A stretch of DNA of 64,000 nt from Candidatus Ancaeobacter aquaticus (GTDB lineage Bacteria > Auribacterota > Ancaeobacteria > Ancaeobacterales > Ancaeobacteraceae), in assembly GCA_030765405.1 (NCBI GenBank), contig JAVCCP010000067.1:97051-161050 (forward strand), read 5' to 3'. This document shows, piece after piece, positions 9,037-56,324 of the stretch. The notes under the pieces are model-generated. The model was not told the origin of the DNA. It did no database searches and was given only the letters and a program-made list of their open reading frames with translations. Positions within the stretch are counted from its first letter, which is position 1; each line of letters starts with the position of its first letter. A program made the position numbers and the translations under genes.

Positions 9037-9460
9037 CGTATAAGGTGTTTATCAGTGAAAGATATAGTGCTATTTAAAATCTATGAACGAAATACAGTTA
9101 TTCGAGAACTATGTGTATATGTAATATCTGTTAGTGTGAAGTTGTTTGAGTTAGTAAATAATAAAAATGCCGGTATCTTCCGAGATAATAATCTTAGGAA
9201 GGTAACGGTCTGTTCAAAGATTTTAAATGCATTCAATAAAGGGAATTATTACTCTTTAGCCAATAATTATAAAATATGCCCTGCTTTTGCGCGTATACGG
9301 CAATAAATCTTTCACCAACGCCTATATATTAGGAGCTCAATATCTAATCGAATACTGCATTGTCTGGAAACAGAATAGCGGGAAGCGGTTGTGAGAGCAC
9401 CTACCTGGATAACAGGTATAAAGATTTATGCCAGTGACGGCTTAAGCGGGGTTTTTTTTA

Positions 9461-9572
9461 AGTAAAAAGTAAAAAGGGAAAACTAGAAAAGTGAAAAGGA
9501 AAAAGGTAAAAAGAAAAACGAAAAAGTAGAAAATAATGGTTTTTACTTTTGATTTTTTACTTTTACTTTTTG
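9461..9572. repeat. About 75-nt near-pure polypurine A-tract array of AAAAAG-type units, followed by a roughly 35-nt T-rich imperfect inverted copy. Lies immediately upstream of rarA.
   Basis: 9461-9535 is over 90% A/G, e.g. GTAAAAAGTAAAAAGGGAAAACTAGAAAAGTGAAAAGGAAAAAGGTAAAAAG.... 9538-9572 (TTTTTACTTTTGATTTTTTACTTTTACTTTTTG) is close to the reverse complement of GTAAAAAGTAAAAAG. Confidence 0.6.
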
Positions 9573-9582
9573 AGTTATCGAT

Positions 9583-10914
9583 ATGGAACTATTTGAATTA
9601 CATACAAATAATGAAGATTCTCATGATGTAGAGGCATATATGCCGCTTGCTGCGCGTATGCGTCCATATTCCTTAGATGACTTTTGTGGGCAAGAAGACA
9701 TTGTTAGTGAAGGAAAATTATGGTGGCGTTGGATGCAATCAGGGAATATTTCTTCATGCATATTATATGGTCCTCCGGGAACCGGGAAAACAACGTTGGC
9801 TTTTTTAGCTGCTCAAACAACGAAGAGTAGTTTTGTTCAACTTTCTGCTGTTACGTCAAATGTGGATGATTTAAGAAAAGCAATCGCTAGAGCAAAAGAA
9901 ACTTTGCGTTATAGCAATCAGAAAACACTACTGTTTATTGATGAAGTACATAGATTTAATAAGGCGCAACAGGATGTGCTTTTGCCACATATTGAAAACG
10001 GTGTCATTACTTTTATCGGTGCAACAACACATAATCCAAGCTTTGCAATTAATGCACCTCTCGTATCACGCGCATCGCTGTTCCGTTTAAAACCACTTTC
10101 AGTTGAATCAATTATGCGTATATGTACAAAGGCTATAAAAAATGAGATTAAAGGATACGGATCGTTGCAGATACAAATGTATGAAGAGGCATTGCGCCAT
10201 ATCGCAGTTGTTTCTGATGGAGATGCCCGTAAAGCGCTCAATGCGCTTGAGACAGGTATTACCAGCACTCCCCCTGATGAAAAAGGGATTATACATTTTA
10301 CGATGGAGGTTGCCGCTGAATCTATACGCACAAAAGCGGTTGTGTATGATCGTAATGGTGATCAGCACTATGATACTATTTCAGCTTTTATAAAGAGTTT
10401 GAGAGGCTCTGATCCTAATGCGGCAATATATTGGCTTTCAAAAATGCTTGATGCGGGAGAAGATATACGTTTTATTGCTCGCAGGATGATTATATTTGCA
10501 TCTGAAGATATTGGTAATGCTGACTCGGATGCCTTGGTAATAGCTACAAGCTGTATGCAGGCAGTTGAATATGTGGGGCTACCTGAAGCGCGTATAGTGC
10601 TTGCGCATGCGGTGACGTATCTTGCCACAGCACCAAAAAGCAACAGATCATATGTTGCACTGTGTGATGCGACTGCTGATGTTAAAGAAGGAAGAGTTCA
10701 AGAGGTTCCTCTTCATTTGAGAAATGCTGCATCTGCATCGTCAAAAAGAATGGGGTATGGGCAAGGTTATAAGTATCCGCACGATCATGAAGGGCACTAT
10801 GTAGATGAGGCGTATGTCGAGCTTGAAAAAGAGTATTATGTGCCAAGTGATAATGGGTATGAGAAAATAATTAAAGAAAGATTGCTTCAGTGGAAAAAAC
10901 AAAAAAAGATATAA
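9583..10914 (+). CDS. rarA: Replication-associated recombination protein A (MgsA/RarA AAA+ ATPase)
   Basis: Walker A GPPGTGKTT and an AAA+ lid, in the RarA family (about 440 aa). Confidence 0.85.
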   Translation: MELFELHTNNEDSHDVEAYMPLAARMRPYSLDDFCGQEDIVSEGKLWWRWMQSGNISSCILYGPPGTGKTTLAFLAAQTTKSSFVQLSAVTSNVDDLRKAIARAKETLRYSNQKTLLFIDEVHRFNKAQQDVLLPHIENGVITFIGATTHNPSFAINAPLVSRASLFRLKPLSVESIMRICTKAIKNEIKGYGSLQIQMYEEALRHIAVVSDGDARKALNALETGITSTPPDEKGIIHFTMEVAAESIRTKAVVYDRNGDQHYDTISAFIKSLRGSDPNAAIYWLSKMLDAGEDIRFIARRMIIFASEDIGNADSDALVIATSCMQAVEYVGLPEARIVLAHAVTYLATAPKSNRSYVALCDATADVKEGRVQEVPLHLRNAASASSKRMGYGQGYKYPHDHEGHYVDEAYVELEKEYYVPSDNGYEKIIKERLLQWKKQKKI

Positions 10915-13123: not shown

Positions 13124-13128
13124 AAAAA

Positions 13129-13160
13129 GTCTGGGGTCTCTGGTCTGAGGTCTCTAGTCT
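13129..13160. repeat. 4.5 tandem copies of a GTCTNNG heptamer in the rny-ymdB spacer
   Basis: The sequence reads GTCTGGG GTCTCTG GTCTGAG GTCTCTA GTCT. GTCT recurs with exact 7-nt phase. Confidence 0.6.
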
Positions 13161-24513: not shown

Positions 24514-24892
24514 ACACCGTATTATTCCACAAAAAAAGTCCCCGTAAATGCCGTCTCTGGGAAGTCTTGTGAGTCGATCGGTTAACGTGGATCCTTGTCA
24601 AATTATTAAATATCTAATAATCCGAACACCAGTCTCCCATAAAAATTTGTTGGCTCACTAACACTAACCAAAATAACGAACACAACAGGGACATATCTTT
24701 CCTTTCAGCTTACATCTACAGTATAGTGGATGTACTGAAATTTGTCAATAGTAAATAGGAAAAATCTGTAATGGGTCAGTAACGAGGGGGACTAAGAGAG
24801 AAAGAATTAATACCATTTGAAATGTCTCAGTAATTGAAGGTGGATACATATCTCCATGTTTGATATTGTAATAGTTATATAGTTATGAGAAC

Positions 24893-24929: not shown

Positions 24930-25346
24930 ATGAAGACTTATAGGCAAGAATTGTATTTTACTACTAAGAAACGGTATGAATTTCTTAATATTACATCTCA
25001 TGTTGAGGAGGCATTGGCAAAGAGTGACGTAAAAGAAGGGCTCTGCTTGGTTAACGCAATGCACATCACCGCAAGTGTATTTATTAACGATAATGAAAGA
25101 GGTCTCCATAACGATTTTATGTCATGGCTTGAAAAACTTGCTCCCTATGGTGTTGATAAATATCAGCATCATGGTACCGGTGAAGATAATGGCGATGCGC
25201 ATTTAAAACGTACGATAATGGGCAGAGAAGTGGTTGTTGCAATAACGAACGGAAGGCTCGACTTTGGCCCATGGGAACAGATTTTTTATGGTGAGTTTGA
25301 CGGTATGAGAAAAAAAAGAGTTTTAATTAAGATAATAGGAGAGTGA
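24930..25346 (+). CDS. yjbQ: YjbQ/UPF0047-family protein (secondary thiamine-phosphate synthase-like)
   Basis: 138 aa. ...[18 protein letters not shown]...[18 protein letters not shown] is the YjbQ signature. ATG follows AGGAGG. Confidence 0.75.
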
Positions 25347-25350
25347 TTTC

Positions 25351-25456
25351 AGCTATAAGCTGTAAGTTGTAAGCTGTAAGAAAAAACAATAAAACACTAA
25401 AACCAAGAATCTAACACCGTGAAACAGCTTTAAGCTGTAAGCTATATGCTGTAAGA
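25351..25456. repeat. Two tandem copies of a roughly 76-nt unit. Each unit carries 3-4 head-to-tail GCTRTAAG octamers followed by AAAA..AAAACCAAGA. A third copy is at 37199-37250.
   Basis: 25351-25380 is AGCTATAAGCTGTAAGTTGTAAGCTGTAAG. 25427-25456 is GCTTTAAGCTGTAAGCTATATGCTGTAAG. AAAACCAAGA occurs at 25399 and 25463. Confidence 0.65.
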
Positions 25457-25483
25457 AAATATAAAACCAAGAGCGTAAATAAA

Positions 25484-26890
25484 ATGCTATCAAAAGACAT
25501 AGTAAAACAACTTAAGAACATTGTTGGAAAAGACAATCTTTGTGATTCAATGGCTGATCGCATTTGCTATTCATACGATGCATCGAAGCAGAATTTCCTT
25601 CCTGATATCGTTGTTAAGCCCCAATCAACTCGTGAAGTATCAGATATCATGAAGGTTGCATACAGTGAGGAGCTTCCCGTGTATACAAGGGGAGCAGCTT
25701 CGGGTCTTACGGGGGGATCAGTCCCTCTTGAAGGCGGTATTGTACTTGATATGATGCGCATGAACAAGATATTGGAGTTAGATACAGATAATCTTATTGC
25801 GCGTGTTGAACCCGGTGTTGTGGTAAGTGACCTTCAAAATGTTGTAGCACAAGAAGGGTTATTTTATCCCCCTGATCCGGCAAGCAATGAATTTTCAACC
25901 ATTGGAGGAAACGTTGCTGAGTGTGCCGGAGGTCTCAGATGCCTAAAATATGGTGTTACCAGAGATTATGTTTTGGGGATGGAAGTTGTTCTGGCAAACG
26001 GAGACATAGTTAATTTTGGCGTTAAAACACTTAAGGGTGTAACAGGATATGATATAGTACGTTTACTTGTCGGCTCAGAAGGGACTCTCGGAGTATTTAC
26101 ACAAATAATCATTCGACTTATTCCTATCCCCGAAAGCGTAAAAACGTGTGTAGCGTTTTATGATGATATTATGAATGCCGCCCAGTCTGTTACCTCGATT
26201 ATAAAAAATAAAATTGTCCCGAGAACACTTGAATTTATGGATAAAAGAACAATTGAATGTGTTGAGAAATATAAAGAAACGAACATATCTGAAGGAAAAG
26301 CACAGGCATTACTGCTTATAGAAGTTGATGGCGTTACTTCAACTATCGAAAAAGAAATAGGCCAGATTCAAGAAGAATGTAAAAAACATGGTGCCTACAA
26401 AGTTCAGATAGCTCAAGATGATCAGGAGCGTGAATTGCTGTGGTCATTAAGAAAATCTGTCTCTCCGGCACTGTACCAGTTCAGCTCCGGAAAAATTAAT
26501 GAGGATATATGTGTTCCGCGCAGTGCTATCCCCAAAATGCTGGAGTCTATAGAAAAAATATCAAAAGCATATTCTGTAATTATAGTGAGTTTTGGTCATG
26601 CGGGAGATGGTAATATTCATTTGAATGTTATGGTAGATTTTGATGATGAAGACCAATTGAGGAGAGGTGAGGCTGCTGTTGAAGAGATATTTAAACGAAC
26701 TATTGAGCTTGAAGGGACGCTTTCAGGCGAACATGGTATTGGTAATACCAAGGCACAATTTTTACACCTTGAACTAGGACAAGAAGAAATTACTATCATG
26801 ATGAAAATAAAAGAGTTGTTTGATCCTAAAGGTATACTTAATCCGGGCAAGATATTTGACCCCTCAAAACAAAGGGTGTATAGAAAGTAA
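25484..26890 (+). CDS. FAD-linked oxidase (GlcD / D-lactate dehydrogenase family)
   Basis: FAD_binding_4 domain (RGAASGLTGGSVP...) plus FAD-oxidase C-terminal domain. Confidence 0.8.
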   Translation: MLSKDIVKQLKNIVGKDNLCDSMADRICYSYDASKQNFLPDIVVKPQSTREVSDIMKVAYSEELPVYTRGAASGLTGGSVPLEGGIVLDMMRMNKILELDTDNLIARVEPGVVVSDLQNVVAQEGLFYPPDPASNEFSTIGGNVAECAGGLRCLKYGVTRDYVLGMEVVLANGDIVNFGVKTLKGVTGYDIVRLLVGSEGTLGVFTQIIIRLIPIPESVKTCVAFYDDIMNAAQSVTSIIKNKIVPRTLEFMDKRTIECVEKYKETNISEGKAQALLLIEVDGVTSTIEKEIGQIQEECKKHGAYKVQIAQDDQERELLWSLRKSVSPALYQFSSGKINEDICVPRSAIPKMLESIEKISKAYSVIIVSFGHAGDGNIHLNVMVDFDDEDQLRRGEAAVEEIFKRTIELEGTLSGEHGIGNTKAQFLHLELGQEEITIMMKIKELFDPKGILNPGKIFDPSKQRVYRK

Positions 26891-36208: not shown

Positions 36209-37198
36209 ATGAAGATAGCGGTTATTGGTGATGGCGGGTGGGGAACTACCCTAGGAGTACATTTAGCGAAAAAAGGTAATGAAGTTACTATTTGGGGGCC
36301 ATTTCCAGAATATATAGCCCTTTTAAATCAAACTCATGTGAACAGTAAATTTTTGCCGGGAATAGATATTCCTGAGACTGTGATTTTTGGTGCTGATCTG
36401 ATACAAATGGTAAGTGATTCGGAAGTGGTCATTGTAGCGGTCCCTTCACATTATGTGAGATCTGTTGTGTCTCAACTCAAGGATATAGATTGCACAAAAC
36501 AGTTATTTATTACTGTTTCGAAGGGTATTGAAAATGATACCTTAAAAAGAATGAGTGAGATAGTATCTGAAGAGGTATCTCCCTTGCGTTTAGCTGCTCT
36601 TTCCGGGCCGAGCCATGCCGAAGAAGTGGCGCGAGGAATACCAACAAGTGTGACCATTGCATCAAAAAATGAGGATGATGCGCGAGGCGCGCAGGAACTC
36701 TTTAATTCAAATACGTTTCGTGTCTATACCAATACAGACATTGTTGGTGTCGAGCTTGGCGGGGCATTAAAAAATGTTGTTGCTATTGCTGCAGGTATCA
36801 GTGACGGCTTGGGTTTTGGAGATAATGCTAAGGCGGCACTCATGACACGCGGTATAGCAGAAATGATGCGTTTAGGTGTTGCGCTAGGCGGTCAGGCAAA
36901 GACTTTTTCCGGTTTGAGCGGTATAGGCGATCTTATTACTACTTGTATGAGCAGGCACAGTCGTAACAGAGCGTTTGGCGAGATGATCGGCAAGGGAATG
37001 AGTGTTGATGAAGCGCTCAATACTACAGAAATGGTTGTTGAAGGATATCGGACAACAAAATCTGTCCAGCAGATATGTACTTCTTCTGGTGTGGAGATGC
37101 CAATTAGTCAACAGGTATACAATGTGTTGTATGAGAAAAAGAAGCCGTTGAAAGCAGTAGAAGAGCTTATGATGAGGAATCTTAAAGCAGAACATTAA
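36209..37198 (+). CDS. gpsA: Glycerol-3-phosphate dehydrogenase [NAD(P)+]
   Basis: N-terminal Rossmann fold (KIAVIGDGGWGTTLG) plus the GpsA C-terminal domain. Confidence 0.9.
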   Translation: MKIAVIGDGGWGTTLGVHLAKKGNEVTIWGPFPEYIALLNQTHVNSKFLPGIDIPETVIFGADLIQMVSDSEVVIVAVPSHYVRSVVSQLKDIDCTKQLFITVSKGIENDTLKRMSEIVSEEVSPLRLAALSGPSHAEEVARGIPTSVTIASKNEDDARGAQELFNSNTFRVYTNTDIVGVELGGALKNVVAIAAGISDGLGFGDNAKAALMTRGIAEMMRLGVALGGQAKTFSGLSGIGDLITTCMSRHSRNRAFGEMIGKGMSVDEALNTTEMVVEGYRTTKSVQQICTSSGVEMPISQQVYNVLYEKKKPLKAVEELMMRNLKAEH

Positions 37199-37250
37199 AA
37201 AAGCTATAAGATTCAAGCTGCAAGCTATAAGCGAAAAACTAAAACACAAA
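37199..37250. repeat. Third copy of the GCTRTAAG / AAAACTAAAACAC repeat element (see 25351-25456)
   Basis: AAGCTATAAGATTCAAGCTGCAAGCTATAAGCGAAAAACTAAAACACAAAA. Confidence 0.55.
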
Positions 37251-37351
37251 ATTAATTATTAATTATATTTTTTGTCGGTATATAATTTTGATGCTAAAAG
37301 TATATTTGCTGTGATACAATCTCTAGTTCGATATTTACTGTAAAGGTTTTT

Positions 37352-37428: not shown

Positions 37429-37515
37429 ATTAGTACGTATCTCGCAACTCGTGATTCGTATGGTATATATTAGGTATAACTGATAGATTATTATTTATAT
37501 TTGGAGAATCGTATT

Positions 37516-56307: not shown

Positions 56308-56324
56308 AAATCGTAACTCGTAAT

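Follow-up and report, generated by a model that had tools for sequence, protein, structure and literature searches.

Arrays of an AGCTRTA heptamer in two spacers of Ca. Ancaeobacter aquaticus

Short arrays of a heptanucleotide unit, AGCTRTA, are found in two spacers between genes of Candidatus Ancaeobacter aquaticus, an uncultured bacterium of Ace Lake, a cold lake in Antarctica, that is assigned to the Auribacterota (PVC group). The DNA analyzed, a stretch of 64,000 nucleotides referred to here as the window, has a GC content of 38% and a strong positive GC skew, with nearly all of its genes on the + strand. Together with 7.7 kb to its left and 3 kb to its right, where the contig ends, it gives a coverage of ~75 kb of the source genome. 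Both spacers are flanked by housekeeping genes (Table 1). One separates a YjbQ/UPF0047 gene (yjbQ) from a gene for a GlcD-like FAD oxidase (glcD), which precedes one for a GlcF-like Fe-S/CCG protein (glcF), and the other lies between gpsA and a tRNA-Pro gene. Most likely, yjbQ, glcD and glcF form an operon, and the spacer upstream of glcD would then be intercistronic within its transcript.

Each of the three arrays consists of four AGCTRTA units and a final AG, and is followed by A-rich sequence. Array 1 begins 4 nt past the yjbQ stop codon and contains TAA in all three reading frames, while array 2, a duplicate of it, ends 28 nt upstream of the glcD start codon. Array 3 begins 3 nt past the gpsA stop codon and lies 120 nt upstream of tRNA-Pro. 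The sequences quoted in the original prediction, which had been made from the DNA sequence alone, are all present where it placed them. It had read the unit as an octamer, but these octamers overlap by a shared G and the true period, as determined with Tandem Repeats Finder (TRF), is 7. Its description of the spacer upstream of glcD as a tandem duplication is borne out, as positions 25350-25389 and 25425-25464 are copies of 40 nt with 85% identity at a spacing of 75 nt. The exact 11-mer TAAAACCAAGA is also repeated in this spacer, at a spacing of 64 nt. GCTRTAAG occurs 9 times in the window where 3.1 are expected, a number reached by 1 of 100 shuffles, with five of the nine within 25352-25455, two within 37203-37231, and eight on the + strand.

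Table 1 Coordinates of the heptamer arrays, adjoining sequences and neighboring genes. Positions are those of the window unless another contig is given.
Feature	Position	Strand	Unit or sequence	Remarks
yjbQ (YjbQ/UPF0047)	24930-25346	+		Stop TGA 25344-25346
yjbQ-glcD spacer	25347-25483	+		137 nt; holds arrays 1 and 2
Array 1	25351-25380	+	AGCTATA AGCTGTA AGTTGTA AGCTGTA AG	TRF period 7, 4.3 copies, 86% matches
A-rich tail 1	25381-25408	+	AAAAAACAATAAAACACTAAAACCAAGA	Includes TAAAACCAAGA at 25398-25408; quasi-period 8
Array 2	25426-25455	+	AGCTTTA AGCTGTA AGCTATA TGCTGTA AG	TRF period 7, 4.3 copies, 78% matches
A-rich tail 2	25456-25472	+	AAAATATAAAACCAAGA	Exact copy of TAAAACCAAGA at 25462-25472
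glcD (GlcD-like FAD oxidase)	25484-26890	+		ATG 25484; glcF next
gpsA	36209-37198	+		Stop TAA 37196-37198
Array 3	37202-37231	+	AGCTATA AGATTCA AGCTGCA AGCTATA AG	Lag-7 region 37199-37244
A-rich tail 3	37232-37251	+	CGAAAAACTAAAACACAAAA	Follows array 3
AAGTAAA / AAAAGNA array	9460-9571	+	~11 degenerate units, then inverse TTTTTAC units	Directly past the T-run of the 6S RNA gene
GTCTNNN array	13128-13160	+	~4.7 copies	Fills rny-ymdB spacer; begins 4-5 nt past rny stop
TCGYRAY array	37442-37462	+	TCGCAAC TCGTGAT TCGTATG (three units)	12 nt past tRNA-Pro; sequence read directly
TCGTAAY array	56311-56324	+	TCGTAAC TCGTAAT (two units)	3 nt past stop of an open reading frame (ORF) of 1633 aa; sequence read directly
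GAACGAT-type array	L169 230-270			Within the 7.7 kb left of the window; single further heptamer array there
6S RNA gene	9275-9456	+		Ends in GCGGGGTTTTTTTT
Second 6S RNA gene	24535-24694	-
Promoter-like site	24748-24720	-	TTGACA, 17 nt, TATACT	Near consensus

The A-rich tails are a different matter. The original prediction had given each half of the duplication an array with the same long tail and had seen this composite recur after gpsA. The arrays stand in each case, but AAAAAACAATAAAACACTAAAACCAAGA follows array 1 only, array 2 being followed by AAAATATAAAACCAAGA. After gpsA, the similarity of tail 3 to tail 1 (GAAAAAC..TAAAACAC) scores 24, and unrelated A-rich sites in the window score 23-24, which is the background. 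A shared composite of array plus AAAAC tail was rejected on these grounds. In a scan of metagenome contigs for the end of an array followed by the TAAAACCAAGA tail, 110 matches were obtained; none adjoins an array, and they are chance matches. The locus in the window, which contains the pattern twice, is not among them and is thus absent from the collection.

Period-7 arrays with other units in the same genome

The AGCTRTA arrays are part of a larger set of period-7 arrays, whose units differ and which occupy spacers that would otherwise be minimal. Lag autocorrelation was tested with a threshold of at least 15 of 21 matches and compared with 300 runs of a first-order Markov simulation. Seven lag-7 regions were obtained in the intergenic DNA of the window (4.2 kb), where the simulation had a mean of 0.35 and no run exceeded 3, and the other lags in the range 4-12 gave 0-2 periodic regions each. 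All lag-7 regions were intergenic at the strict threshold, as were seven of nine at a looser one. The unit differs by locus, being AGCTRTA, AAGTAAA, GTCTNNN or TCGYRAY in the window and GAACGAT in the left flank, with arrays of AGCTRTA itself at two loci in the ~75 kb. Four arrays in the window begin 3-5 nt past a stop codon, which is the typical placement, and most of those with other units lie shortly past a stop codon or an RNA gene. A stem-loop and a T-rich run just past the array at 56311-56324 read as a putative intrinsic terminator.

Head-to-tail units of 7 nt, an excess over chance and a mainly non-coding location are among the features of the long simple-sequence repeats (LSSR) and short tandemly repeated repetitive (STRR) sequences of bacteria, and all are found here. 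In our view, the arrays are probably short and partly decayed heptanucleotide simple-sequence repeats of this kind, generated by slippage in transcribed spacers just past stop codons. A 7-nt AGCTRTA unit beside a stop codon would have been amplified to ~4 copies, likely by replication slippage or unequal exchange, and point mutations would then have blurred the array. In the yjbQ-glcD spacer, the array and its A-rich flank would have been duplicated once as a segment of 75 nt. The array near gpsA would be a second instance of AGCTRTA that arose independently or by copying, as the evidence fits either. Most likely, the arrays are present in RNA as part of intercistronic or 3′ untranslated region (3′-UTR) sequence, and we think that they have no sequence-specific function. 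Any effects may be incidental, such as the lengthening of the spacer from at most 59 nt to 137 nt, which would probably uncouple translation of yjbQ and glcD, the supply of TAA in all three frames, and a hairpin between arrays 1 and 2 that would be only weak. The best reading is that the kind of repeat is already known, with no indication of a novel element, whether regulatory or mobile. It seems best to regard the arrays in the window as a filler of simple-sequence DNA among housekeeping genes, and not to annotate them as regulatory sites, iterons or a new mobile element.

The arrays are absent from syntenic relatives

The locus was compared with those of the closest GlcD homologs (72, 70 and 69% identity), which lie on three Auribacterota-like contigs that retain the yjbQ-glcD-glcF order, one of them retaining the whole gene order from dxs to GH3. 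Their yjbQ-glcD spacers are 59, 24 and 1 nt long. None of these spacers contains a heptamer array, and no period-7 array was found anywhere in the three loci of 15-20 kb. This absence from syntenic relatives indicates that the arrays are a lineage-specific insertion rather than a conserved control region. The spacer of the closest relative holds a different short element, GTCATCCTGAGGGAGCAAAGCGACCGAAGGATCTC (L163 9942-10000), whose motif is also present as an inverted pair in another relative (L164 17505-17661); it seems that the yjbQ-glcD spacer can accommodate insertions that are unrelated from one lineage to the next. Three heptamer arrays within 8 kb were found in Ca. Tritonobacter lacicola, another Auribacterota metagenome-assembled genome (MAG), in keeping with published descriptions of simple-sequence repeats as sporadic and dependent on lineage in their distribution. 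There was no period-7 array in a contig from an unrelated organism (44% GC) that came from a search for paralogs of a DUF4143 ATPase.

Searches for a promoter, a structured RNA or mobile DNA

Neither strand yielded a terminator between 24400 and 25600, and the + strand yielded no sigma-70-like promoter there, so the promoter-proximal setting that had been proposed for arrays 1 and 2 is not supported. No Rfam 15 family matches the arrays, whether at its gathering threshold or at E≤1. The region 25300-25500 is free of inverted repeats, and neither terminal inverted repeats nor target-site duplications are visible at the arrays. Arrays 1 and 2 can pair, as AGCU and UAUA are self-complementary, but the predicted folding is weak (-22 to -25 kcal/mol, z -1.8 to -2.1). 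An equal or better fold was obtained from 3 of 200 shuffles for a stretch of 151 nt and from 9 of 200 for one of 115 nt. The copy containing array 3 folds no better than shuffles (z +0.73). With no Rfam match and unconvincing z-scores, a structured RNA was rejected. Among the annotated genes of the window, there are no replication or plasmid genes near the AGCTRTA arrays and no gene for a transposase, a REP-associated tyrosine transposase (RAYT) or a cold-shock protein (Csp). A HutP gene and a hut operon are likewise not present.

Heptamer arrays are widespread across phyla

Related arrays were surveyed with one genome per GTDB species and a pattern of two AAGYTRY-type units plus an A-run (loci L043-L162). 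The seed pattern required an A-run, which biases this sample, and its gene calls are simple and crude calls of long ORFs. At least 120 loci matched, against ~26 expected. Among the matches listed were Halomonas, Pseudoalteromonas, Psychrosphaera, Aequorivita, Omnitrophota, Elusimicrobiota, Planctomycetia, candidate phyla radiation (CPR) lineages, Deltaproteobacteria and others, but no contig of Ancaeobacter. The unit itself does not stand out. In viral contigs, three control heptamers that permute the same letters were found at 91, at least 120 and 92 loci, compared to 36 for the AAGCTRT unit, and AAGCTRT was rejected as a special conserved heptamer with controls 2.5 to more than 3 times as frequent. 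The claim of a novel repeat family survives only in part: one unit does occur at two loci in three arrays, and the repeat strings are found in no searchable paper or Rfam family, but the kind of repeat is known and permuted controls equal or exceed this unit in frequency. Outside the seed matches, the commonest TRF period in 881 kb from the 120 loci listed was also 7 (142 arrays, against 99 of period 9 and 68 of period 8), and these period-7 arrays comprise dozens of different units.

The arrays of Pseudoalteromonas show how such sequences change. From one species to another, orthologous loci (L054 and L121; L115, L135 and L145) differ in copy number and in the unit that has been homogenized (AAGCTAT vs AAGCTGT). 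This is the concerted evolution of a persistent microsatellite, and classic microsatellite behavior. Those in 3′-UTRs of this genus sit between the stop codon and an intrinsic terminator.

Approximately 40-55% of the cross-phylum arrays begin within ~10 nt of an upstream stop codon. A function as a "stop-codon bumper" is weakened by the finding that heptamer arrays lacking stop codons on their strand abut gene ends as often (15 of 37) as stop-rich ones do (24 of 63). Since stop-free arrays are equally often at gene ends, the adjacency may simply reflect compact spacers and deletion bias.

Comparison with described heptamer repeats

As summarized in PMC4679880, heptanucleotide units are the most abundant class among longer bacterial simple-sequence repeats, and polymerase slippage has been proposed as their cause (Mrazek 2007). 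From the same summary, LSSRs resemble the arrays of A. aquaticus in their head-to-tail 7-nt unit, their concentration in non-coding DNA, their sporadic occurrence among lineages and the dominance of heptamers (Mrazek 2007, via PMC4679880). The arrays of A. aquaticus differ in being short (~4 units) and degenerate (78-86% matches), and in that no length polymorphism was observed in the single population that was sampled.

Closest among the described cases are the TAACTGA sets of marine Beggiatoaceae, some Cyanobacteria and Bacteroidetes, in which one unit dominates (169 sets; MacGregor 2015, PMC4679880). These are sets of two to six intergenic, forward-oriented heptamers that place stops in three forward frames, have no predicted structure and drop sharply in frequency above four units; their function is unknown, and a binding protein of the Csp, S1 or CsrA type has been put forward (PMC4679880). 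The present unit is AGCTRTA, unlike theirs, and several units coexist in one genome. Furthermore, TAACTGA sets end one to a few nt before a start codon, replacing the Shine-Dalgarno sequence, whereas the arrays of A. aquaticus begin 3-4 nt past an upstream stop codon.

The cyanobacterial STRR sequences offer a further parallel. Mazel et al. reportedly described them in 1990 as tandem intergenic heptamers, with several unit types per genome and without a known function. Their units are said to be CCCCAGT, TTGGTCA and CAACAGT, in arrays that are often longer and that belong to another phylum.

Weighing of the alternatives

Several observations argue against an origin of the arrays by simple slippage alone, beginning with the fact that this interpretation rests on ~75 kb of source genome. 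The number of units is exactly four in each of the three AGCTRTA arrays. At the locus, six metagenome contigs that come from different Ace Lake samples show 100% identity and hence none of the copy-number polymorphism that is the mark of active slippage; the same six are also identical over 6-21 kb, and the population sampled appears to be clonal. In the cross-phylum set, arrays of this motif with two, three, four and five units number 33, 26, 36 and 8, and those of other heptamers 127, 43, 46 and 11, whereas periods 6 and 8 decay monotonically with unit number and have no such shoulder at four. A shoulder at four units followed by a sharp drop at five is not predicted by simple slippage. Where the flanking genes are co-directional, arrays of the unit are on the sense strand in 44 cases and on the antisense strand in 18, as far as the crude ORF calls allow, although this bias may follow the replication strand, with which both genes and G>C skew are co-oriented. 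Two further regularities are not fully explained by a neutral origin: 44 of 81 arrays begin between -21 and +10 nt from the upstream stop codon, 17 of them supplying that stop, and an inverse array follows within 200 nt downstream in 17 of 107 cases, while none precedes. Pairs of array and inverse array form hairpins of -33 to -46 kcal/mol (z -6 to -11). Finally, 32 of 35 positions match between one module of a tandem repeat in a Planctomycetia MAG and the first 35 nt of copy 1 in A. aquaticus.

Some of these regularities are what a cis-acting RNA element might produce, in which a four-unit array in 3′-UTR or intercistronic RNA serves as a platform for a single-strand-binding protein with 7 nt per monomer. 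A protein with a cold-shock domain is the obvious candidate and a HutP-like reader of NAG-N4 sites another. The bound protein would modulate the neighboring genes at the level of translation, RNA stability or antitermination. The placement of sense-strand arrays at stop codons, in the window as well as across phyla, and the peak at four units with its drop at five, seen with this unit and other heptamers alike, are in line with such a platform. The published TAACTGA sets show the same cut-off above four units, and CspB of Bacillus subtilis binds direct heptamer repeats with one protein per heptamer (PMC4679880). The host also lives in a cold lake. Against this, the same spacer has no array in three relatives, and the unit varies from locus to locus within one genome, which speaks against a single sequence-specific reader. 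In addition, control heptamers are as common or commoner, stop-free arrays abut gene ends equally often, the sense bias may have the replicative origin mentioned above, and the annotated genes of the window include none for a Csp. We therefore regard an RNA platform as unlikely, although worth keeping in mind. The GTCT-type units at the rny-ymdB spacer resemble GTCTTTG/T, a heptamer reported as the binding preference of CspB and CspE. The HutP hexamer reads three NAG triplets separated by 4 nt, and (A)AG recurs every 7 nt on the sense RNA of the arrays; this is a resemblance of spacing only, as there is no layout of terminator and antiterminator.

The inverse arrays of other phyla bring to mind the repetitive extragenic palindromic (REP) sequences, the bacterial interspersed mosaic elements (BIME) and the REP doublets forming hairpins (REPIN), with which the arrays share their short length and their extragenic position in transcribed spacers after stop codons. 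If they were related, a four-unit array would be one arm of a hairpin, the copies in A. aquaticus would be singlets or direct doublets, and the element would spread through the genome or be kept as a stem-loop that stabilizes or terminates mRNA. The inverse partners that only ever follow and the stability of their hairpins are in favor, as are near-identical dispersed copies between consecutive genes in Endomicrobiales and Elusimicrobiota MAGs, a 36-nt module repeated in tandem in the Planctomycetia MAG and, in A. aquaticus itself, the AAAAGTA / TACTTTT pair at 9460-9571, which has the layout of an array followed by its inverse. However, the predicted hairpin at 9440-9585 is no better than shuffles (z -1.45), and at the flagged loci the second arm is direct, not inverse, so that there is no inverted repeat, palindrome or GTAG-type head, and folding is weak (z -2.1; 9 of 200 shuffles as good) or, for the third copy, absent. 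There are also only two loci in ~75 kb, and neither the RAYT or transposase gene nor the terminal inverted repeats and target-site duplications of a mobile element were found in the searches above. The proposal of a REP-type element is thus not supported for this genome, and a REP/REPIN-like role of the arrays appears very unlikely.

Even less can be said for the suggested array of binding sites on double-stranded DNA, iterons or direct repeats for a transcription factor, which would control transcription of glcD or tRNA-Pro. In its favor, the non-coding DNA that precedes glcD contains direct repeats, as does that 120 nt before tRNA-Pro. However, the unit is 7 nt long, where iterons have ~17-22 bp and phased sites 10-11 bp, and a period of 7 bp would, by helical geometry, rotate each site by ~240 degrees relative to the last on B-DNA. 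It is the upstream stop codon that marks where the arrays begin, and their distance to the downstream start is not fixed. No + strand promoter was found in the yjbQ-glcD spacer, and the neighbors are housekeeping genes, with no rep gene, origin or plasmid gene nearby. Nor are there arrays upstream of the orthologous glcD genes, where the gap of 1-59 nt to yjbQ makes co-transcription probable. This explanation is highly improbable.

A broader form of these ideas would make (AAGCNNN)4 plus an A-run, on the sense strand right after stop codons, a cross-phylum 3′-UTR or intercistronic RNA element of which the arrays of A. aquaticus are members. Such an element could be a Csp-like platform, with one heptamer per monomer, or an arm of a REPIN-like hairpin. 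It is kept alive by the four-unit shoulder, the sense bias, the placement at stop codons and the match of 32 of 35 positions in the Planctomycetia MAG, and we judge it improbable for the arrays described here. Should the preference for four copies, the abutment to stop codons and the hairpins of inverse pairs be due to selection, this would suggest a widespread, so far unrecognized layer in the biology of 3′-UTR or intercistronic RNA. These regularities are described in no searchable paper or Rfam family, and deserve a systematic survey in their own right.

Hairpins of heptamer arrays in other phyla

The loci that form stable hairpins include three on the reverse strand of an Endomicrobiales MAG (L097 2705-2800, 3393-3505 and 5057-5155) as well as L096, L092, L120 and L131. 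Their layout is a stop codon, four AAGYTRT units, AAAA, a loop of 10-45 nt, TTTT, four inverse units, a Shine-Dalgarno sequence and ATG. Copies are near-identical within and between MAGs (Endomicrobiales, Elusimicrobiota; L096, L097), and the three in L097 lie between consecutive genes. The hairpins belong to no Rfam family, with weak matches to eukaryotic miRNA models only, no paper describing them was found, and they look like an undescribed REP/REPIN-like class. In the Planctomycetia MAG (CAYJSX010000009.1, L057, + strand ~1300-1450), four tandem modules of ~36 nt, each made of CAGC, four TAAGCNG-type heptamers and AAAA, are followed by an inverse array. The second of these modules is the one that resembles copy 1 of A. 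aquaticus.

Two predicted 6S RNA genes

Two genes for 6S RNA were predicted in the window. The first scores 52.9 bits, and heptamer units follow it directly, up to position 9571. The second, on the opposite strand, scores 39.7 bits (E 3e-6), which is below the Rfam gathering score of 46.4, and the near-consensus promoter-like site listed in Table 1 is on its strand. Homologous non-coding regions of two relatives also score as 6S RNA, with 49.2 bits (L163 9111-9269) and 56.8 bits (L164 914-1094). By these covariance scores, the genome has two predicted 6S RNAs within 16 kb.

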